From Sedimentisphaerales bacterium (GTDB taxonomy: Bacteria; Planctomycetota; Phycisphaerae; Sedimentisphaerales; SM23-30), in the NCBI GenBank assembly GCA_963663965.2, contig CAXXFK010000030.1, forward strand, positions 263,771-327,770: DNA of 64,000 bases, read 5' to 3'. The position numbers and the translations under genes were made by a program. The notes beneath the pieces are model-generated. The model worked only from the letters and a program-made list of their open reading frames with translations, did no database searches and was not told the origin of the DNA. Position 1 is the stretch's first letter, and each line of letters opens with the position of its first letter. Positions 47,619 to 60,613 of the stretch are shown one piece after another.

Positions 47619-48692
47619 ATGAAAAAAGGACTGTTTTCCCGGTCATGGCCCTATTGGGTCATTTTATTTTCTGTCCTGCTATCAAGTCTTTCCTGGTCCC
47701 AGTGTCCCCAGGGCGATCTGAACGGAGACTGCCGGGTTGATCTGGATGATTTTTCCCTGCTTTCATCACAGTGGCTGCTCAGTTACGATCAAAATGATTT
47801 TGTGCTGTTATGCTCACAATGGCAGTCCCCCCCTCAAGATCCCGATGGTCTCGAATTCGTCACCATCCCCGCCGGCTCCTTCCAGATGGGCGATCCCTTC
47901 AATGAAGGTGGCACCGATGAACGCCCGGTCCACACCGTCACGCTCAGTTCCTTCCAGATGAGCAAGCACGAGATCACCAACGCGCAGTTTGCCCAGTTCC
48001 TTAACGCCGCCAGGGCACAGAACAAGCTTAAGGTGGTTAACGGCGTCATTTACGCCATCACCGACAGTTCCAACAGTCAGCCATGGTGCGATACCTCCAC
48101 CTCCAGCAGTTACAGTCAGACCGTCATCAGCGGCGGCGGTTATAGCGTCAAAACCCGCGACGGCCGCTCCCAGGTGAACGATCCGGTGGTCTGTGTCAGT
48201 TGGTATGGCGCCAAGGCCTTCTGCGATTTCTACGGCTATAAACTCCCTACCGAGGCCCAGTGGGAATACGCCGCCCGCGGCGGGCTTTCCGGCCAGCGAT
48301 TCCCGTGGGGCACTAACATTAACCATTCCTATGCTAATTATCGTGCCAATGGGAGTGCCTATACCTACGACACCAGTCCCTATACCACCTATACCTATCA
48401 CCCCACTTACAACACCGGAACTTATCCCTATACATCACCGGTGGGCAGTTTCGCCGCCAATGGCTATGGCCTCTATGACATGTCCGGCAATGTCTGGGAA
48501 TGGTGTTCCGACTGGTACGGCGCATATTCATCCGCGAGTCAGAGCAATCCATCTGGGCCTACCACTGGCAGCAACCGCGTGCTCAGCGGCGGCAGTTGGA
48601 CCAGCGTTGCCGGCATCTGCCGCGTTGCCGGCCGCGAATGGTACATCCCCGGCAACCGCAACTACTGCGTCGGGTTTCGGGTGTGCCGGTAG
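47619..48692 (+). CDS. Secreted dockerin-like + FGE-sulfatase/SUMF1 (CLec-fold) protein, paralog 1; putative DGR target
   Basis: GDLNGDCRVDLDDF..QWL; FQMG..ERPVHTV, EITNAQF, LPTEAQWEYAARGG, NGYGLYDMSGNVWEW, GFR. Confidence 0.9.
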   Translation: MKKGLFSRSWPYWVILFSVLLSSLSWSQCPQGDLNGDCRVDLDDFSLLSSQWLLSYDQNDFVLLCSQWQSPPQDPDGLEFVTIPAGSFQMGDPFNEGGTDERPVHTVTLSSFQMSKHEITNAQFAQFLNAARAQNKLKVVNGVIYAITDSSNSQPWCDTSTSSSYSQTVISGGGYSVKTRDGRSQVNDPVVCVSWYGAKAFCDFYGYKLPTEAQWEYAARGGLSGQRFPWGTNINHSYANYRANGSAYTYDTSPYTTYTYHPTYNTGTYPYTSPVGSFAANGYGLYDMSGNVWEWCSDWYGAYSSASQSNPSGPTTGSNRVLSGGSWTSVAGICRVAGREWYIPGNRNYCVGFRVCR

Positions 48693-48749
48693 TTTTTCCC
48701 CCTGGACTTGATTACCCTTTGCTCTTTTGCACTTTTATCCTTTTGGGTT

Positions 48750-48768
48750 GCAGGGGCGTAGCCCCTGC
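48750..48768 (+). other. GC-rich 8-bp hairpin with GTA loop (DGR-type cis hairpin candidate)
   Basis: GCAGGGGC-GTA-GCCCCTGC 57 bp after the stop, preceded by a pyrimidine tract and not followed by a U-tract. Confidence 0.6.
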
Positions 48769-49106
48769 CGGATAGAAAAATGAAAACCAGTGAATTGAAA
48801 ACAAAAAAATTACTATGAATGACTTGAAGATCATGAAGAAAAGAAATAAACTGCCACAGGCTGATTACCCTTCAAGCACTTCATACTACTATGCATTTCA
48901 GGTCAACTTGGGTATCATTTGTAAATATACAAAATTGAAAGTAAACTTTCGTACTTTTATAACCATCTAAATCAGCTTTAGCCAGGTTTTTCATTAAGAA
49001 TTCGAATTTTTTGTCATGAACGGCAGTATTTCCGAACATGTCATTTATTCGTTCGCGCCAAAGTTCCCGACGCGGGCTGGTCAACACATTGGCTAAGCCG
49101 GGCGTT

Positions 49107-49215
49107 GTTTTCCCGGTTCAAGCCACTCGCTCTCAAACGCTAATCCAGCCACGGGCAACGCCTTTTTTTCTCGGTGTCCTCTGCGGTCATTGTCTTCTGA
49201 TCTAACCACCGGTTC
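49107..49215 (+). repeat. Dispersed non-coding repeat, copy 2
   Basis: GTTTTCCCGGTTCAAGCCACTCGCTCTCAAAC..TAATCCAGCC..CTCGGTGTCCTC..ATCTAACCACCGGTTC. Confidence 0.85.
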
Positions 49216-49652
49216 AAATCCATCGATATCGGATAGTTATGCAATTCACGATTGATAATGCCCGCTTGGCCGTAAAAATAATCTTTTAAAAGTTTTTTGT
49301 CCATTGATCTTTAAAAAAAAAACAAATTAGTAATTCCCCGCTTTCCATCAATCCCACCCGACCAACGGTTAGTATTATCAAACTTTAAGAAACATATTGA
49401 TCGCCCAGACTGTCTATCCTTCCTATCTTTCCAATTTTTTCTTTTCTCCCCCAAAATATACCTTTATATCGTAATTACCCTGCTTGAATGTCGTGTTCGT
49501 AAAGAATATGATTACAATAGTTGCATTTAAATATTTGGGTGGTTTGCTGGCAATAAGTTTTGCTTTCGGTTCTAATAGATTAATTTGATTAAGAATACAA
49601 CCATTTTCCAGTATTCGGATAAATCAGTTGCTTACGTAGTAAGGAGCAGGTC

Positions 49653-51795
49653 ATGAAGCAGATGTCGACTATTTTGCTGTTGGGATTATTTTGTTTTTCC
49701 AGTGCTATCGGGGAATGGTGTCCTCGAGCAGACCTGACCGGTAATTGCAAAGTGGATATGGAGGATTATGACATCATTGCCGCCGGTTGGCTCGACCTCT
49801 ACGACACAGAAGCCCTGGCCAGACTGGCCGAACAATGGCTGGAAGAAGGGGAACCGGCATTTATAACTGCCTGGGACACCAGCCTGGCAGACGGTACGAC
49901 CGTGACCCTGGCGCTGGCCGGTGAAGTCAACGCGACCATCGACTGGGGTGACGGTACAGTAGAAGATGTCACTACTCCAGGTCCGCATGTACACGATTAT
50001 GGTATTGATGGGATTTATCCGGTTGCGGTTACTGGACAAGTGACGGCATACGACAGCGGTTATAATGGCAGTGGAGATCCTTATATCGACGAAGCAAAAC
50101 TGATCCGCGTCGATTGTTGGGGAGATTTGGGTTTTACCAGTATGAGAGATGCGTTTTATAATTGCTCCAATCTCGTTTCAGTCCCAATTACATCAGTAGG
50201 AATTGAAGCTGTTACTGATATGAGTGAGATGTTCTATGAGGCGTCCAATTTTAATGGAGATATTAGCAACTGGGACACCTCCAGCGTGAGGAACATGAGT
50301 GGGATGTTCGACCGTGCGTCCTCCTTCAATCAAAACATTGACGACTGGGACACTTCCAAGTGTCACTAACATGACTGAGATGTTCTATGATGCGTCCTCC
50401 TTCAACCAGGGCATTGGTGACTGGGATACCTCCAGCGTGAGGAACATGAGCAGGATGTTTGGTCGTGCGTCTTCCTTCAACCAGGACATTGGTGACTGGG
50501 ACACCTCCAGCGTGACTAACATGAGTGGGATGTTCTTTTTGGCGTCCGCCTTCAACCAGGACATTGGTGACTGGGACACCTCCGGTGTAACTAAAATGAG
50601 TGAGATGTTCTATGATGCGTCCTCCTTCAACCAGATCATTGGTGACTGGGATACCTCCAACGTGAGTAACATGAGCATGATGTTCTATGGTGCGTCCTCA
50701 TTCAACCAGTCCATCAGTAACTGGGACACCTCCAGTGTAACTAACATGAGCTGGATGTTCTATGAGGCGTCCAATTTCAATGGGGATATTAGCGGATGGG
50801 ATACTTCCAGAGTGAGTAATATGACCGGGATGTTCTATCGTGCGTCCTCCTTCAACCAGGACATCGGTGACTGGGACACCTCCCGCGTGACTAACATGAG
50901 TGCAATGTTCTCTTTTGCGTCTTCCTTCAACCAGCCTATTGGTGACTGGAACACCTCTGGCGTGACTGATATGAGCTGGATGTTCAGTCGTGCGTCCTCC
51001 TTCGACCAACCCATCGGTAGCTGGGACACTTCCAACGTAACTAACATGAGTGAGATGTTCTATGAGGCATCCAATTTCAATGGGGATATTAACGGCTGGA
51101 ATACTGCCAGTGTGACTAACATGAGAAGAATGTTCGGAGGGGCGTCCTCCTTCAACCAGAACATTGGCGACTGGGACACCTCCAGTGTGACTAACATGAA
51201 CTTGATGTTCAATGATGCGTTCTCGTTCAACCAGGACATCGGTGACTGGAACACCTCCAGTGTGACTAACATGAGCTGGATGTTCTTTAAGGCGTCCAAT
51301 TTCAATGGGGATATTTGCGACTGGGATACTTCTAATGTTACTGACATGGGTTCAATGTTCGGATGTGCGTCCTCCTTCAACCAGAACATTGGTGACTGGG
51401 ATACCTCCAGTGTGACTGATATGGGCTATATGTTTGATCGTGCGTCCTCCTTCAACCAGGACATCGGTGACTGGGACACCTCCAGAGTAACTAACATGAG
51501 CTGGATGTTCAATAAGGCGTCCAATTTCAATGGGGATATTAGCGGCTGGACTACTTCCAGTGTGACTAATATGACCGGGATGTTCTATGGTGCGTCCTCC
51601 TTCAACCAGCCCATCGGCAATTGGATTACCTCCAGCGTTACCTACATGGGGAGGATGTTTTACAACGCGTCATCGTTTAACCAGAACCTGTCTGGATGGT
51701 GCGTGGAGCAGATTCCTTCAAAACCTGACTATTTCGATACCGGCGCCGACAATTGGACACTACTACAGCCCATCTGGGGAGCGAGCTGCCCTTAA
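49653..51795 (+). CDS. Dockerin-like + DUF285/BspA-type repeat surface protein, paralog 1; frameshift near 50359
   Basis: [23 protein letters not shown]; 20 repeats of [25 protein letters not shown]; one extra A (TCCAAGTGTC) splits the ORF. Confidence 0.88.
50211..51710 (+). repeat. Coding tandem repeat, 75-bp unit, 20 copies
   Basis: 25-aa unit counted 20 times across the two ORF pieces. Confidence 0.9.
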
Positions 51796-52197
51796 CCTAT
51801 CCCGGATAAATTCCTATGAAGACTAATCCTTAAACCCCGGTAGCAGTTGGAACACCACCAATGTATAATGTTCGTTTTCGAACGGGATTTACGCCATCCT
51901 GTTCAACATAGACTTCAGTCAAGAATTCTAGGAGGGGGTATCGATTTGGATTTTCATTACTTAAGTCTTTCCGCGCCTTTGCGTTCAATGACTGTTAGAA
52001 CAGATGAGTCATCTCCATAAATAAACAACTCAATCTCTCATTTTTTTATCAAATTAATAAATTTTTCAAATATTGCCCCCATCCCTCAGTTTTTTACTGG
52101 TTATTACTTCATCATCAAGACTAGAATATAAAAGCAGTGTGCAACAGTTATAAGCTTGAACTTTCCCATCTAACCGATGTTGTGGAAGGTGGCGTGT

Positions 52198-53271
52198 ATG
52201 TGCAGAAACAAGGTTAGCCTGCCTGGTTTTTTTGCGGTCGTCTTATGTATCAGTCTATTGGCTGCTTCAGCCGTTTCCCAGTGTCCCCCAGGTGATCTTA
52301 ATAACGATTGCCGGATCGATCTGAATGATTTCTCGATCCTTTCATCACAATGGCTGCTCAGTTACGATCAAAATGATTTTGTGCTGTTATGCTCTCACTG
52401 GCAGTCAGAGTCTCAGGGCCCGGCCGGTATCGAATTTGTCACCATTCCCACCGGCTCGTTTCAGATGGGCGATAGTATTGGCGACGGCTACAATGATGAA
52501 AGACCGGTTCATACCGTTACGCTGGACACCTTCCAGATGAGTAAACATGAGATTACCAACGCTCAGTATGTCCAGTTCCTCAACGCCGCCCAGACCCAGG
52601 GCAAACTCAAGGATGTTAATGGTATAATCTACCCCAGTACCGACACTTCCAACAGCGAGTCCTGGTGCGATACCTCCACCAGCAGCAGTTACAGTCAGAT
52701 CGTCAGCAGTGGCGGCAGCTACAGCGTTAGATTACGTGATGGCCAGCCCCAGGACAACCACCCGGTTGTCCAAGTCAGTTGGTACGGGGCTAAGGCCTTC
52801 TGCGATTTCTATGGCTACGAATTACCCACCGAGGCCCAGTGGGAATACGCCGCTCGTGGCGGCCTGTCCGGCCAGCGTTTTCCGTGGGGCGCTGACATTA
52901 ACCATTCCTGCGCCAATTATCGTGCCAATGGCAGTGCGTATTCATACGACACCAGTCCCTATACCGAATACACATATCACCCCACCTGGAATACCGGCAC
53001 TTTTCCCTATACTGCCCCGGTAGGCAGTTTTTCCGCCAACGGCTACGGTTTATACGATATGGCTGGTAATGTCTATGAATGGTGCGCCGACTGGTATGGT
53101 TCCTATACCTCATCGGATCAGAGTAATCCAACTGGGCCCATCACAGGCAGCAACCGCGTGATCCGCAGCAGCTGTTGGAGCAACGTTGCCTACAGCTGTC
53201 GTGTTGCCTACCGCCAAAAGGGCGGCCCCGTCATTTGCACCCGCTTCCTCGGGTTTCGGGTGTGTAGGTAG
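52198..53271 (+). CDS. Secreted dockerin-like + FGE-sulfatase/SUMF1 (CLec-fold) protein, paralog 2; putative DGR target
   Basis: Colinear with and highly similar to 47619-48692; divergence is concentrated in the last ~40 codons. Confidence 0.9.
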   Translation: MCRNKVSLPGFFAVVLCISLLAASAVSQCPPGDLNNDCRIDLNDFSILSSQWLLSYDQNDFVLLCSHWQSESQGPAGIEFVTIPTGSFQMGDSIGDGYNDERPVHTVTLDTFQMSKHEITNAQYVQFLNAAQTQGKLKDVNGIIYPSTDTSNSESWCDTSTSSSYSQIVSSGGSYSVRLRDGQPQDNHPVVQVSWYGAKAFCDFYGYELPTEAQWEYAARGGLSGQRFPWGADINHSCANYRANGSAYSYDTSPYTEYTYHPTWNTGTFPYTAPVGSFSANGYGLYDMAGNVYEWCADWYGSYTSSDQSNPTGPITGSNRVIRSSCWSNVAYSCRVAYRQKGGPVICTRFLGFRVCR

Positions 53272-53584: not shown

Positions 53585-54284
53585 TTAAATATTCGGATAT
53601 AGTGATCTCAATTTACACCTGGCATCTTCCACTTTAAATTGCCAGTTAACGCCTCGTTGCTTTTCGTTGGAGTGGGTAGCCCATGCTTTCGTCTCTTTTT
53701 TCAGCCTATCCATGTCGGTCATTTTTCGATCCTTCAGACATTGCCGGGTCATCGCACTCAGTTCATTTTCGGCCACATTGAGCCAACTGCCATGCTTGGG
53801 CGTGTAATGAAATTCAATTTTTTCCACATACCGGCGCGCCTGCTCCGGAGGAAAAACCTCGTAAAAAGCTCCCTTGGTATGAGTATTCAAATTGTCGCAC
53901 ACCAGAAGCACTCGTTTCGCTTGGGCATAGCGGCCCTCCAGCAACTCTGCCATTTCAACGGCCCAGTCAACCTTTTTCCGTTGTGGACGAACGCTCACCC
54001 CACGCCAGCCGGATTTTGGTTCTGTGAACATGAATAGGCTGGCGGTTCCGGCACGTTCATATTCATAGTCCACTCGACGAGGATGATGCAAGGTCGCGGC
54101 CATCGGAGTGCGAGTTTCCTTGAGCAATTGCACCGGCTGTTCATCCATGCAGAGCGCCGGAAAATCCGGGTCATACGGCAGGGAATAGACATTCAGGACA
54201 TCTTCCATGCACGCGACAAATTCACTGTTTTGCGCCGGCGGTATCACCCAGTACTGTATCTTTCGGTTCGTTATTTCATTTTTT
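53585..54284 (-). pseudogene. IS630 transposase, DDE half
   Basis: CMDE, DYEYERAG, VCDNLNTH, TPKHGSWLNVAE. Confidence 0.9.
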
Positions 54285-55749
54285 GTAACCGTTCACACAT
54301 TCTGACAGATTAACGATGGATATTTTATGTTGCTCCAATGAGCAATAATCGATTCATGGATAAAATCAAGGACATTCTGACGCTGTTTTTTGCAGGTTGC
54401 TATTGTTGTCCAGATGCGTTCGCACCAGCGCATGCCTGCCTGGCCGCGCGTTCCTTGCGTGATCCGTCGGTCAATCACCACGGTGCGAATTTGGCGCTCC
54501 GTGCCATTATTGGTGGGTTCGACAGCCGGCTCCGTCAAAAATCGGAAGTAATCGGTTGCAGCATTGCCCTTAAATCGTTTGGCCAGTTTCTGGGCCAGTT
54601 TGTGATTCGGCGGCCTTCGCATTTGCTTCAAAAAGCCGGTTTTGAGGCGCGCCATCGAACGCAACCAGCCCGGTGGCGTCAAGGCGTCCCGCCGATGCAG
54701 GGTGTCAAACAGTTTTTTGAGCCATGCCAGCAATTTTGTTCCCCAGCGAGACAGTGCGGGCACGCTATGCTCGGCCAGAAAACGAACGTCTCGAATCAAG
54801 TGAGCCATGCAATACTGAACACGAACACCAAACAACCGGGCATACTTGCGATAGGCGCCCCAGTAATCGGCCCCAATGATCCCGGCAAAGGTTTTACCAA
54901 GCATGGTTTCCAGCACGCCGCTGCCGCGCGACGGATCAATCTTAAACAAACTGTAGGCGCCGGTATCAAAACACCAGGTCCAGTGCAGCTTGCCATTGTC
55001 ATGATGGCCTGTCTCATCGATATTGACCTGCGGTTCGTTCGGCAATCGGTCGGCCAGTTCATCATACGATCGGCCCAAGGCGCTCGATCCCTTCTGAACC
55101 GCCTTGCCAAGCATGCCGCGAGAAACCTCCAGCTTCATCACCTGCTGGAAAAAACCCTGAATGGTGCTATACGACATATGGCAGGCGCCTTTCAAATAGG
55201 ACACCAACGCCGTCAGGTCCGCACCCAGCAATCCCCCTTTACGAATCTCGTTCGGCAAGGGGGTGATCTGGACCTTTCCTGTCACAGGGTTTCGGTACTT
55301 TCTAGCTCGATGCTCAATCACCTGGTACATTTTCTCCGGCAATCCGATTTGTTGAATGACAAACCAGGCATCCAGAGGCTTAAGGCCCACGGCGTCTTTG
55401 TCTGCCAACTCGTATTCAAATGTGTGGTCAACTTCTTCAAACGGTTGACGCGAAAACTTTTTATGCCCATGCTGGCCACCCCGGTTGCGTTTTTTGCGAC
55501 TAGCCTTAGCGGAAGGCCTCTTGGGTTTGACAATATCACTTGAGGGCGGCTTGGACGAATTGCTCGAATCTTTCTTGAGCCGAGCAATTTCTTCTTTGAG
55601 CTGCCTTACTTCTTCGCGTAAGGAAGCGACCTCTTGGAGCAGCTGCGCTATAACAATATCTTTGTCATCCATAACTTATGGTATAACAGATGGTTGTGCA
55701 GGGCGCAATCTTTTTTCTTGTTATTTTTAAAAAAAGTGTGAATTGTTAC
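54285..55749 (-). mobile_element. IS66-family element (single ORF, ISBst12-like)
   Basis: TIRs GTAACCGTTCACAC / GTGTGAATTGTTAC; 8-bp TSD CATTTTTT at 54277-54284 and 55750-55757; 1465 bp. Confidence 0.93.
54293..55672 (-). CDS. IS66-family transposase
   Basis: DSSNSSKPPSSD, GGQHGH, IDETG, DYWGAY, QYCMAHLIRD, PTNNGTERQIR. Confidence 0.93.
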   Translation of the reverse strand: MDDKDIVIAQLLQEVASLREEVRQLKEEIARLKKDSSNSSKPPSSDIVKPKRPSAKASRKKRNRGGQHGHKKFSRQPFEEVDHTFEYELADKDAVGLKPLDAWFVIQQIGLPEKMYQVIEHRARKYRNPVTGKVQITPLPNEIRKGGLLGADLTALVSYLKGACHMSYSTIQGFFQQVMKLEVSRGMLGKAVQKGSSALGRSYDELADRLPNEPQVNIDETGHHDNGKLHWTWCFDTGAYSLFKIDPSRGSGVLETMLGKTFAGIIGADYWGAYRKYARLFGVRVQYCMAHLIRDVRFLAEHSVPALSRWGTKLLAWLKKLFDTLHRRDALTPPGWLRSMARLKTGFLKQMRRPPNHKLAQKLAKRFKGNAATDYFRFLTEPAVEPTNNGTERQIRTVVIDRRITQGTRGQAGMRWCERIWTTIATCKKQRQNVLDFIHESIIAHWSNIKYPSLICQNV

Positions 55750-56184
55750 CATTTTTTTAAGCGTCGTGGCAACGGTGGTGTGACTGATGGATTCTACGAT
55801 TCCCAATTCCACCGCTTTGTCGGCGATCAAACGCAACGACCAGTTACTGTAACCTTCCGGCGGATCGCTCAGCCTCAGGGCAATGATCTTTGCCTCCTGC
55901 TCGCCATCCAGCAGCTTGGCGCGAGGCGGCGTGTCACGCTGCTTACCGTTCAATGTGATGTCAAACCCTCTTTCTACCAGCGATTTACGAACTTTGGTTA
56001 CGGTCCTGAGACGACACAAAAAAGCGTCGGCAATTTGATTGCAGGACCAGTTGGGACCGTCCGCATCCGCCTTAAGCAAGATTTGAGCCCGTTTGACTTT
56101 TTGCGAGGTGCCCTTGAGTTTTGTAACAACTTCAAGCAGCTCTTTCCGTTCTGCGTCAGTGAGACGAACGATGTACTTTTTCAT
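55750..56184 (-). pseudogene. IS630 transposase, N-terminal HTH half
   Basis: MKKYIVRLTDAER, RAQILLKAD, PPEGYSNWSLRL, ISHTTV..LKK, cut at the IS66 junction. Confidence 0.9.
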
Positions 56185-56326
56185 AACAAACTCCATAAAT
56201 ATTCGGTTTATGGAGTTATTATCGGACATGCTATATAAGAATATTTAGTTTTTACAGAGCACTAGCTTAAGTCATTGTCAATCTCCAGATCATGCCGGGC
56301 AAACTCTATCCGGTCTGATCATCGCG

Positions 56327-57031: not shown

Positions 57032-58390
57032 TCACGGACACGACCCCCAGATTGGCTTGGGCAAATTCCAGTTATAGGCCTCTTCAGCGAACAATTCCGG
57101 CTCGGCGGTGATCTGCTCAACACACCAGCCGGATAGATCCTGGTTGAAATGTTCAGCCGATTCGAACATGCCGCTCATGTCTGTGACACTGGCGGTATTC
57201 CAGCTGCTAATATCCTGATTAAAATCAGCATCCTTGAACATCTCCGCCATATTCACTACCCTGGCAGTATTCCAACGGCCGATGTCCTGGTTAAACGATC
57301 GGTTCCCTTCAAACATCGAATGCATATTCGTAACCCTGGCAGTATCCCAGTTGCCGATATCCCGGTTGAAGGATGAGGCCCCCATGAACAGGCAGCTCAT
57401 ATCCGTTACCCCGGCAGTGTCCCAGTTACCGATATCCTGGTTAAAAGAGCCGGCCGATTCAAACATCCAGCTCATATCGGTGACCTGCGCGGTATTCCAG
57501 CGGCCGATATCCTGATTGAAATCGGACGCTTCGCTGAACATGGCCTCCATCGTGGTGACCTGCGCGGTATTCCAGTTGCCGATATCCTGGTTAAAATACC
57601 CATTCCAGGAAAACATACCGCTCATATCGGTTACCTTCGCGGTGTCCCAACTGCCAATGTCCTGGTTAAAACGCGCGCGCCGGAACATATTGCTCATATT
57701 GGTCACCTGCGAAACGTTCCAGTGACTGATATCCTGATTGAATAACGTAAACGCGAACATTTCGCTCATATCCGATACCGCTTCCAGCCCGCGCGTCGTG
57801 GTCGGAACCGATACCAGATTCCAGCAATTATAAAACGCGCCATGCAGACTGGTAAAACCAACCCGGCCCCAGTTATTCACCTTCACCAGCTTGGCTTCCT
57901 CGTAATTGGGTGTTCCGCTGCCATTGTCCAGGCTGTTATATCCGGTAACTTTACCCGTTACGGCAACCACGTAGATACCCTCGATCCCGTAATCATGGCT
58001 GTGCGGGCCGGGAGTGGTCACCCGTTCCGGTTCGCTGTCGTCACCCCAGTCGATCATTGCGTCAACTTCACCGGCCAGCGCCAGCGTCACCGTGGCGCCC
58101 GCTTTCATGCGGGTGTCCCAGGTCGTGATAAACGCGTCATTGGCGACCATCCATTGATCCGCCAGCAGCGCCAGATCCAGCTCGTTAACAACGGCCGGAG
58201 TCACCAGGTCCGCCCCGGCACAATTCTGGTTGGACAGATCGCATTCCTGCATCCACCACTGGGCGATAACCGCCAGATCATCAAAATCGATAAAACAGTC
58301 CCCGGTCAGATCCCCTTGCGGGCACTGGGCCAGGCAAATTCCAGATAAACACAAAACCACAGACACTACCATCATCGCTAATGTTCTCAT
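57032..58390 (-). CDS. Dockerin-like + DUF285/BspA-type repeat surface protein, paralog 2
   Basis: CPQGDLTGDCFIDFDD; FITTWDT, IDWGD; 9 repeats; C-terminal [16 protein letters not shown] as in paralog 1. Confidence 0.88.
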   Translation of the reverse strand: MRTLAMMVVSVVLCLSGICLAQCPQGDLTGDCFIDFDDLAVIAQWWMQECDLSNQNCAGADLVTPAVVNELDLALLADQWMVANDAFITTWDTRMKAGATVTLALAGEVDAMIDWGDDSEPERVTTPGPHSHDYGIEGIYVVAVTGKVTGYNSLDNGSGTPNYEEAKLVKVNNWGRVGFTSLHGAFYNCWNLVSVPTTTRGLEAVSDMSEMFAFTLFNQDISHWNVSQVTNMSNMFRRARFNQDIGSWDTAKVTDMSGMFSWNGYFNQDIGNWNTAQVTTMEAMFSEASDFNQDIGRWNTAQVTDMSWMFESAGSFNQDIGNWDTAGVTDMSCLFMGASSFNRDIGNWDTARVTNMHSMFEGNRSFNQDIGRWNTARVVNMAEMFKDADFNQDISSWNTASVTDMSGMFESAEHFNQDLSGWCVEQITAEPELFAEEAYNWNLPKPIWGSCP

Positions 58391-58726
58391 GTTGCTACCT
58401 CTAAATGAAACTATTTTATTCGAACAAACACCATCAAAGATGCACACTATCAAGCTTCAAAGTCTGCATAATTCCCGTTCGATCAGGTTGATACAAAAAA
58501 AGTTGTTTCCCGTACAGGAGTGCCGCCTGTCTTTCCCGATAATCCACGTATCCTTTTTCATGACTCTTTCCTTATCAGCCACATAAACCGGTTCAATTTC
58601 ATAATATATAGTTTTTATTATACCATTGGTTAACAATGAGTCAACATTGAATCAAGAATTGATAGGGAGGCCCAGAATGTATGGATGGCATGCATTGTTT
58701 ACTTAATTAAATAAATATAATAATGT

Positions 58727-58785: not shown

Positions 58786-60613
58786 GAGCCTGTCCGCAAT
58801 TCTTGGATTTTGTGAGCCGCGGTTTTGGGAGGACTGATTTTGAATCGTATCATCAGTAGATGACGGCTGGTGTCCAGGTTATTTTCGTTCAGCGGGTGAT
58901 TTTCCGATTTCTGCGCATAGTAGCCCCATAAACAGGGCAAGCCGGGGTGGTTTTAAGCCACTTTTTGTCGTTCTTTTTCCCGTTCTTCCTCTTGAGCCAG
59001 CTTAATTCTGGCCAATACCCAGAGGTTGTGCGATAAAATGCTCAGGCCCATATGGACTTGGCGGTGATCAAAGCCTTTTTGTTTCATGGGCGCCCCGCAA
59101 AAACCATGGCTCAGGATGCTGATTCGGGCTTCGGTCTGACTGCGGCGAGTCTGAGCCTGCCGGAACGGCTCTTCCTGAAGCCTTTCCTTCAGCAAGGCCG
59201 GGCTGAGCGGACAAACCGCATTAAAAATATCGTGACTTTCCATGTATTGGCGATTCCCGGCGCTGTCGAAGCCCCGATCGCCGGCCAACAGCTTGACTTG
59301 ATTACCAAGCTTCTCTTCCATACGCCGGTGGCTGGCTTTAAGCATTTTTTCATCGCTGGGACCTTGCTGACGAAATAACTTCCAGTCCATGATTAAGCCA
59401 TTGGATTGTTCGGCCAGATAAAGTTGGTTGCCAAATTCCGTCTCCGCGCCGGCCTTGCGGCGCACGATCACATGGATATCCGGCTCGTAAAGGCTCAAGA
59501 TCTTGTCTGGATTGGCAACCTTGCGTTCGCCGATCATGCGTTCGTGAGCCTGCCTGACCACGGCGGCCAACTGACAGGTCACGCCGGTAATCTGTTTGAC
59601 GATTTGCCGGACGGAACCGAGAGCGATATCGGCCTTTTTCCAGTGGTTTTCCAGGTTTTTCAGATGATTTTCCGCATGATTCAAGACCCGCCGGATCAGT
59701 TTTTTCATCTTTCGCAAAACCGCTTTACGCAGTTTTTTCGCGCCCTTTTTGCGGTTAACATAGGTCATCTCCATGCAGAGCTTATTCATGTTTGAAATAA
59801 ACTTAGCCGGCTCGCAAGGCATGCGACACAGGATCCCGGCTTTACGAATACGGGCCGTCGCCTTCATCAAGGTACGGGTCGCATCTCTAAACAGCAGCCA
59901 GTCGATCGGATAATGAATGTGGGCGCCAATGCAGGTACAGTCAAAATAAGCCTGACTGAAATCCAGGGGGGCCTCCAAAACAACCGAACCCTGGGCCACT
60001 TGAAAAAACAGTTCTTCCGCCTGAGCGATTAACTGAGGCGAAAGCGCGTTTTCCAACTCGTTGATTCTGGTTTTGCCGGGGATCCGAGGCAGATCAAAGC
60101 GGTTAATGCCGCAAAACCACTGATACAGTTCGCTATGAGACAAGGCCACGGCAAATTTACGCAACGACAAACCCAGCCGCTTACGCAGGATCGACATCCG
60201 TAACGCCCAAACGGCCTGGGCACGAATATTCATGCGATCCGTATGGGTTAATTTAACCGGCGTGTCAGTGCCAAAGTGCTCGATGGCCATTTCAGCGTAA
60301 GCTTTGTCGAGAAAATACTGGAGAAACAACTGCTCCAGATCGCTGTGGCGGATGATCTGGTCCATGGCCAGCAACTGCTGGCGTTCCTGGCGATACTCCA
60401 GACAGCCAAATTCTTCCGGAATACCTTTGTCAAACAACTGCTGAACGGGTAAAATCTCTGGCATAGGTGTGTTCCCTTTTTTAAGGAAAAATGATTCGCA
60501 AAACATTTTATAACACACCTATTTTACGGTTTTGACCCAAAATAGCACGCTATAACTCCGACTCTTTTACATAATCTTCTGAAATCTATAGGGTTAAAGC
60601 TACGGACAGGCTC
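58786..60613 (-). mobile_element. IS5/ISNCY-like insertion sequence
   Basis: TIRs GAGCCTGTCCG / CGGACAGGCTC; TATTTA duplicated at 58780-58785 and 60614-60619; 1828 bp. Confidence 0.88.
58953..60464 (-). CDS. DDE transposase (IS5/ISNCY-like)
   Basis: DCT..HIHYPIDWLL, DKILSLYEP..RKAG..EFG, GDRGF, RSQTEARI. Confidence 0.88.
   Translation of the reverse strand: MPEILPVQQLFDKGIPEEFGCLEYRQERQQLLAMDQIIRHSDLEQLFLQYFLDKAYAEMAIEHFGTDTPVKLTHTDRMNIRAQAVWALRMSILRKRLGLSLRKFAVALSHSELYQWFCGINRFDLPRIPGKTRINELENALSPQLIAQAEELFFQVAQGSVVLEAPLDFSQAYFDCTCIGAHIHYPIDWLLFRDATRTLMKATARIRKAGILCRMPCEPAKFISNMNKLCMEMTYVNRKKGAKKLRKAVLRKMKKLIRRVLNHAENHLKNLENHWKKADIALGSVRQIVKQITGVTCQLAAVVRQAHERMIGERKVANPDKILSLYEPDIHVIVRRKAGAETEFGNQLYLAEQSNGLIMDWKLFRQQGPSDEKMLKASHRRMEEKLGNQVKLLAGDRGFDSAGNRQYMESHDIFNAVCPLSPALLKERLQEEPFRQAQTRRSQTEARISILSHGFCGAPMKQKGFDHRQVHMGLSILSHNLWVLARIKLAQEEEREKERQKVA

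Follow-up and report, generated by a model that had tools for sequence, protein, structure and literature searches.

We analysed a stretch of 64,000 nucleotides (the window) that forms the end of contig C30 in the assembly of a Sedimentisphaerales bacterium (genome G000; 7.24 Mb in 42 contigs, 94.6% complete). The window contains two paralogous genes, A and B, which encode proteins with a C-type lectin (CLec) domain of the formylglycine-generating enzyme (FGE) type and end in variable regions (VRs) of the kind written by diversity-generating retroelements (DGRs). With a probability of about 0.72, we consider both genes to be orphaned, formerly remote DGR targets. The evidence consists of the codon signature of the gene tails, their adenine specificity against a proxy template, the homology to verified targets, the homing flank behind gene A, the absence of a reverse transcriptase (RT), avd, and a template from the assembly, and a fossil cassette on contig C1. 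The two genes and their variable regions are listed below.

47619..48692, + strand: gene A, 357 aa, with a probable signal peptide (judged by eye), a dockerin-like module, and an FGE-type CLec domain (open reading frame, PF03781, and structure model)
48567..48692, + strand: variable region A, evidently DGR-written; the RGG motif reads SGG, and 12 of 15 variable codons are NNC
52198..53271, + strand: gene B, 357 aa, paralogue of gene A with the same architecture, 73-75% identical; the protein collection places its start at 52198 and not at 52177
53146..53271, + strand: variable region B, evidently DGR-written; the RGG motif reads RSS, and 11 of 15 variable codons are NNC

Codon signature of the gene tails

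The last 42 codons of the two genes aligned without gaps, and the differences fell on 15 first, 13 second, and 4 third codon positions, which reproduces the hand count of the initial annotation. Its observation that changed codons mostly keep a third-position C was also confirmed. From 21 amino-acid-changing codons in the tail, 17 were NNC in both genes and 20 kept the third base, against 14 and 27 of 61 in the upstream part (Fisher p=3.9e-6 and p=2.4e-5, respectively). Upstream (codons 27-316 of gene A, 290 codons), the differences numbered 44, 32, and 111 at first, second, and third positions, and all 12 sliding 42-codon windows lying wholly upstream contained 12-22 third-position differences, compared with the 4 of the tail. 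The contrast in synonymous change that had been described between the two parts held to a lesser extent: third-position changes do dominate upstream, but among identical residues the tail (4 of 20) and the upstream part (78 of 218) did not differ significantly (p=0.22).

As a positive control, we used two verified targets of G013, a Phycisphaerae genome of the same family. Their differences at the three codon positions numbered 29/27/87 in the upstream part and 15/12/0 in the tail; over the same spans, A and B showed the near-identical pattern of 37/27/91 and 15/13/4. Two pairs involving an older paralogue at C30:41 kb gave 21/20/23 and 17/18/26, with no signature. Altogether, 13 pairs were compared, and several were intermediate.

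Because third positions are far more alike in the tail (4 of 42 different) than upstream (111 of 290), the overwriting of the tails would have followed the split of A and B. The third-position distance of the tail was approximately 0.2 of the upstream distance (95% range 0.05-0.52), so the last overwriting would have occurred well after the duplication and probably not recently.

A pattern of this kind might also be sought in ordinary paralogues without any DGR, through diversifying selection on a binding loop, a bias towards C-ending codons, or gene conversion. The codons that vary are also those at which the structure tolerates change, and the lack of a significant difference in synonymous change agrees with such an origin, whereas selection does not preserve the third bases of changed codons and the older paralogue pairs lack the pattern. 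By amino-acid spectrum, the family could not be told apart from other FGE homologues: residues unreachable from AAC made up 3.4% in the family and 4.7% in the homologues (p=0.19), although the control, in which 50 of 77 loci had a scorable tail, itself contained VR-like tails.

Intact DGRs in relatives and the proxy template

In G013, contig C80 carries avd, the RT, an AAC-rich template within the 3' tail of the RT gene, and a target gene, and the Avd protein passes the NF033474 cut-off. Two further G013 targets lie on other contigs, and both combine a signal peptide, a dockerin-like module, and a CLec domain, as A and B do. The three targets are 63-66% identical to gene A. Compared with their own template, they differ at 19, 19, and 28 of 38 adenines and at 0, 0, and 1 of 85 other sites. 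When the same template was taken as a non-cognate proxy for A and B, 24 of the 38 adenine positions and 8 of the 85 remaining positions carried a mismatch between the two genes (p=1e-9). The variation at template adenines was retained with first and second codon positions alone, at 24 of 36 template-adenine sites versus 4 of 46 others.

G013 contains three different templates, and a remote dockerin-like and CLec target was also found in G017. Among 24 other genomes of the family, four have a DGR RT, and of 201 genomes belonging to the order, 9 have an Avd over the cut-off; the element is therefore patchy. In a domain tree computed without the tail, A and B stand nearest to a paralogue on contig C18 and to the G013 targets, with no starred branch joining them. 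The nearest relatives are verified targets, which also argues against an origin without a DGR.

The reading of the tails as DGR variable regions on FGE-type CLec proteins is thus supported by verified adjacent and remote targets in relatives, by differences that fall on template adenines, and by the cis flank of gene A. The initial annotation had asked for a template or RT in the genome or its close relatives and for adenine-specific mismatches. Neither component was found in the assembly, the relatives have them, and the mismatches are adenine-specific against the proxy. A search for the scaffold pattern found none in metagenome contigs, and G013 alone among 185,579 species genomes. In addition, a protein scan of metagenome contigs returned 79 loci, the best being 48-49% identical, and none had a closer template.

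Further loci of this clade were observed in the course of the survey. In L059, L169, L170, and L172, the 3' tail of the RT open reading frame contains the template, which is in a different frame. Two G013 regions, L059:6527-6652 and L057:5791-5916, have identical VRs and approximately 130 identical flank bases behind different N-termini and divergent upstream sequence; gene conversion, recent duplication, and assembly collapse are candidate explanations. At L176:10326-12739 (G013:C169), two tandem targets occur with a template and its 3' flank, no avd or RT was present in the 16 kb fetched, and the template apparently relies on an RT elsewhere. Finally, L219 (G008:C167) harbors two tandem dockerin-like and CLec genes with VR-like tails and flanks. 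In this genome, which is 94% complete, no DGR RT (E<=1e-40) and no Avd over the cut-off was detected, and L219 is a possible second orphan case.

Homing flanks behind genes A and B

The sequence behind each gene contains the following features, where IMH stands for initiation of mutagenic homing.

48693..48749, + strand: IMH-like homing flank of A, with target-type CTGGA at 48702 and a pyrimidine-rich tract
48750..48768, + strand: perfect 8-bp GC-rich hairpin with a GTA loop; its core is that of the G017 cassette hairpin and occurs once in the genome
48780..48818, + strand: avd start stub behind A, with ATG at 48780, reading MKTSELK against MKNEELK of the G017 Avd, and a stop after 12 codons
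53272..53312, + strand: decayed homing flank of B, alignable to the flank of A, with no CTGGA, GC-rich hairpin, or avd stub

A profile of eight verified VR flanks was searched against the genome, and the flank of gene A was the only strong match (E 1.4e-7), followed by a weak second match at C13. The 151-base end of A also matched the G017 target-avd junction with 76% identity over 131 nt (E 5e-18). In relatives, CTGGA was present in 11 of 12 VR flanks and CTGCA in 8 of 9 templates, the remaining pair being CAGGA/CAGCA (read by eye). The known homing signals are the IMH and a downstream stem-loop (PMC8632793). Gene A has an IMH-like flank with a downstream GC-rich hairpin, and gene B does not. 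We base the hairpin on its perfect stem and its homology and not on folding energy, which was not unusual for the whole flank (z -1.07). The avd-like part of the stub covers approximately seven codons, and an avd-like stub (MSQELKIIL) is also found behind two non-adjacent G013 targets.

The homology of this non-coding flank to target-avd junctions, together with the avd stub behind A, largely refutes the explanation by selection, codon bias, or gene conversion, which we regard as extremely improbable. Even jointly, all readings that do without a DGR remain very improbable.

Absence of the DGR machinery and a fossil cassette

The initial annotation reported no template or RT in view, and the same proved true across the whole assembly. 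The RT search of G000 resulted in nine matches. Three representatives scored above the cut-off for group II introns, five more were near-copies of these judging by their scores, and the last was retron-like and below its cut-offs. The G013 RT as a query of G000 returned nothing but 24-26% matches, and a profile of five family DGR RTs, with stops read through, returned nothing further. The Avd search of G000 gave 0 matches at E<=10, and an adenine-tolerant ungapped scan of both strands gave no template for A or B. As a result, a cognate template, a DGR-class RT, and avd were all missing from the 94.6%-complete assembly.

A fossil cassette was found on contig C1 (G000:C1:207000-213454, L025). 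The locus consists of an FGE target, a template 3' flank, a partner gene, and a second, frameshifted target, has neither avd nor RT, and is syntenic with G017 C15 and G013 C80. When the genome was searched with a profile of five template 3' flanks, the single match lay on C1, immediately after the stop codon of the FGE gene (E 1.5e-6). Minus its first 20 bases, this flank resembled template flanks (scores of 25 and 28, with a shuffle maximum of 15) more than target flanks (scores of 8 and 13). The FGE gene shares 69% identity with the target in the G017 cassette and is followed by a homologue of the 1100-1250-aa partner gene that comes after the RT in G013 and G017. The order is therefore target, template flank, and partner, with avd and RT missing, and the locus lies approximately 200 kb from either contig end. 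At the junction, target-type CTGGA is followed by template-type sequence, which would fit a deletion by recombination between two homing repeats. Since G013 has three templates, more than one cassette may have been lost from this genome. The C1 tail was also considered as the template of A and B and was rejected, with 26 and 30 non-A mismatches, respectively.

The earlier proposal that A and B are served in trans by a remote template and RT could not be upheld for the present day: the assembly has no RT, avd, or template, a fossil cassette without avd and RT was found instead, and the flank of B is decayed. Present DGR activity on A and B is unlikely.

Decay series among the paralogues

The tails of eight paralogues from this genome were scored. 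Six of them have 11-14 NNC codons among 15 variable codons (12 in A and 11 in B), and the other two have 6 and 4. The C13 paralogue (G000:C13:202511-203654) still has a hairpin flank and clusters with the G013 targets; two stops interrupt it close to the start. In the C18 paralogue (G000:C18:27185-29484), an IS630-like element splits the gene just before the tail. Of 121 family proteins, 82 had a scorable tail, and 74 of these retain the RGG motif; in three of the eight paralogues, including A and B, it is broken.

Additionally, A and B differ at eight sites that are non-A in all seven in-register templates. The baseline from RT-bearing genomes is 0, 1, 1, 1, and 4 non-A differences for five in-register VR pairs; one of 12 template-VR pairs was left out of it (G013 C78 a, with seven mismatches, out of register by a 3-base deletion). 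A decay of A and B as DGR targets is suggested by these data, not proven.

Proposed history and alternatives

Under the orphaned-target reading, A and B would be former remote targets of a chromosomal DGR with avd, RT, and template, as in related Phycisphaerae. A secreted dockerin-like and CLec gene would have been duplicated together with its homing flank, which in A extends as far as the first avd codons. Each tail would then have been overwritten by adenine-mutagenised cDNA from one template or from two very similar ones, a process that would have kept the scaffold and the third positions alike and scrambled the AAC codons that encode the ligand-binding surface. Later, the genome would have lost the machinery, a loss that we infer to be real and not an assembly gap, and the two variants would have been left frozen and drifting, B having lost the homing signals that A keeps.

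Several observations weigh against this reading. The flank of A is well preserved, and the cognate template was never found, the best proxy templates having 15 non-A mismatches to A and 18 to B. The C1 fossil has a scaffold of a different type, which groups with the G017 target in the tree; it shows the loss of a DGR in this genome, not the loss of the cassette that wrote A and B. The eight non-A differences are no proof of inactivity, given the 4 and 2 non-A mismatches of G017, whose RT is intact, and the up to 11 non-A differences reported by Wu et al. in one target (PMC5758913). The read data comprised one run, available as contigs only at a depth of approximately 3; two contigs cover both VRs without a difference, may represent the source sample, and are uninformative on variation. 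A and B form single-member clusters in a cluster look-up.

The 42 contigs also leave approximately 5% of the genome missing, and gene A (perhaps B as well) may still be diversified in trans by a cassette that was left unassembled, sits on an unbinned replicon, or is present in only some members of the population. DGR cassettes break assemblies, as in G013, where contig C80 ends in a VR flank, but in G000 no FGE or partner-gene match lies within 3 kb of any contig end, and the site that corresponds by synteny to the cassette of relatives is covered by the assembly and stands empty. In G013 and G017, members of this protein family are indeed served remotely, strains with and without RT can coexist (PMC10907252), and A keeps CTGGA, the hairpin, and the avd stub. 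Against this stand the absence of RT, avd, and template from 7.24 Mb, the decayed flank of B, and changes at scaffold residues that are conserved in 77-80 of 82 relatives. We judge continued service to be unlikely.

The genes may instead have arrived already diversified, through horizontal transfer or duplication of finished targets, and never have retrohomed here, or they may have been written by two related DGRs. The surrounding region is rich in insertion sequence (IS) elements, the genes are mosaic, with the flank of A closest to G017 and the scaffold closest to the G013/G165 templates, and the eight non-A differences would fit two templates. However, at least six of the eight scored paralogues are rich in NNC codons, and together with the C13 hairpin flank and the fossil cassette this indicates that DGRs worked in the ancestry of this genome. 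The third positions of the tails, moreover, place the overwriting after the split of A and B. Arrival in finished form and writing by two DGRs are, taken together, quite unlikely on this evidence.

A broader scenario, which we offer as doubtful, extends the orphaned-target reading. The DGRs of these Phycisphaerae would act as a mint for a family of secreted, dockerin-like-tagged binders, in which a module of CLec gene, hairpin, and avd start is dispersed, rewritten in trans, and fixed once the cassette has deleted itself through recombination of the target and template flanks. Gene A would then stand ready as a landing site for reactivation by a related DGR entering the genome, and the tag would dock on a cohesin-free surface scaffold.

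Domains, fold, and probable role of the proteins

The PF03781 (FGE-sulfatase) match in gene A covers residues 79-356 (E 9e-64), and the domain runs to the C-terminus in both proteins. The structure model of gene A, obtained from 105 sequences, has a predicted local distance difference test score (pLDDT) of 93.7; its matches are proteins of the FGE fold, among them TvpA, a DGR target of Treponema. An earlier model from seven sequences was poor (pLDDT 55) and was not used. Domain search, alignment, model, and fold match agree in placing the VR at the C-terminus of a CLec/FGE fold in A and B. Family-wide entropies exceed 3 bits at template-N positions, and R, G, W, C, and GFR hardly vary, a pattern that is as one would expect of a variable binding surface.

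The best sequence and fold matches are FGEs, and relatives are annotated in databases as 'formylglycine-generating enzyme family', a name that would make A and B enzymes. In the alignment to 6MUJ/2Q17, however, the cysteine pair of the FGE active-site loop is not present in A and B. The Cys-bearing stretch LCHDSYCNRYR of the matched FGE, which we take to be its catalytic copper site, is aligned with WTSVAGIC of gene A, a stretch encoded by variable codons, and the sole conserved Cys is the scaffold Cys. Because the cysteine loop falls on variable codons, FGE activity of A and B appears unlikely, and the probability that the proteins are formylglycine-generating enzymes is practically negligible.

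The N-terminal module of gene A is located as follows.

47700..47822 (limits approximate), + strand: dockerin-like module with one EF-hand-type repeat and a shortened second helix (sub-threshold PF00404 match; two helices in the model)

This module has an EF-hand-like motif, GDLNGDCRVDLDDF, followed by a helix, and resembles a type I dockerin (PF00404). The dockerin label of the initial annotation is retained here as dockerin-like, since both genes match PF00404 but below the cut-off (E 0.03 and 0.015; 15-16 bits versus 22.9) and with the first repeat alone. The modules differ from type I dockerins in this score, in the shortened second repeat, and in that no cohesin (PF00963) was found in the genome at E<=0.01, a search that divergent partners would escape. 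A strict motif for the dockerin-like tag occurs 45 times in the genome. The likeliest role of A and B would be that of secreted binding proteins, acting in adhesion or substrate capture and tethered by the shared tag to some partner.

The same dockerin-like N-terminal tag is carried by two DUF285 repeat genes in the window, at 49653-51795 (+) and 57032-58453 (-). The first sits between A and B and is split by a frameshift near 50350. An IS cluster occupies 53585-56229 and 58953-60518, and one of its transposases has an identical copy on C42. The element at 53585-56229 is presumably IS630-like and is interrupted by another transposase gene.

Comparison with known systems

Remote targets and decayed DGRs have already been described and the mechanism is known; A and B extend this picture rather than change it. 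Wu et al. (2018) gave 73 non-adjacent targets for 45 of 372 DGRs (PMC5758913), and Vallota-Eastman described 76 remote targets in cyanobacteria, with paralogues of graded template homology (PMC7517822). Remote targets are also treated in PMC8867640. RT-anchored surveys miss remote targets (PMC8144416), and surveys that require an RT beside the target would miss genes like A and B. The supplements of PMC8144416 had no match for Phycisphaerae or dockerin, two files lying outside the search. Dockerin fusions have been noted in Limihaloglobus, without DGRs (PMC11557425). The supplement of PMC10907252 lists a DGR RT with an adjacent FGE gene for Sedimentisphaera cyanobacteriorum, so DGRs in this order are on record. 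A literature search with a coverage that leaves out most subscription journals returned no papers on DGRs together with Phycisphaerae or with dockerin.

Among Phycisphaerae proteins related to A and B and named 'formylglycine-generating enzyme', 420 matches at E<=1e-60 were obtained from 8000 candidates scored, and hundreds of such annotations become candidate DGR-derived binding proteins. The genome also offers a readable DGR life history, with target dispersal, loss of the machinery, and graded decay of the flanks. The details worth keeping are the dockerin-like-tagged targets, the avd stubs behind dispersed targets, and the cleanly deleted cassette.

The closest systems are the intact DGRs of the same family in G013 (C80), G017 (C15), and G015 (C13), which share the target family (G013, 63-66%), the flank and hairpin (G017), and remote dockerin-like and CLec targets. 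Unlike G000, these genomes keep avd, RT, and template, and most of their VRs match the template at all or nearly all non-A sites. TvpA of Treponema denticola (PDB 2Y3C) likewise has a 3'-terminal VR on an FGE-type CLec domain (sequence E 3e-20, fold E 1.5e-15). With other chromosomal DGRs that have remote FGE/CLec targets (TvpA; PMC5758913; PMC7517822), A and B share NNC codons and dispersed paralogous targets with a homing flank. In contrast to those systems, no template, RT, or avd was found in the present assembly, the flank includes an avd stub, and the N-terminal module is a signal peptide with a dockerin-like repeat instead of a lipoprotein or kinase part. Thiohalocapsa PB-PSB1 and the clade 5 DGRs (Dore et al. 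2024, PMC10907252) also have loci that lack RT or template and keep their CLec targets. The targets described here differ from these in that they look secreted and do not lie beside conflict-system genes in the window. In Thiohalocapsa, other intact DGRs remain and the loss is tied to transposons, whereas in G000 none remains and the fossil on C1 looks cleanly deleted between the target and template flanks.

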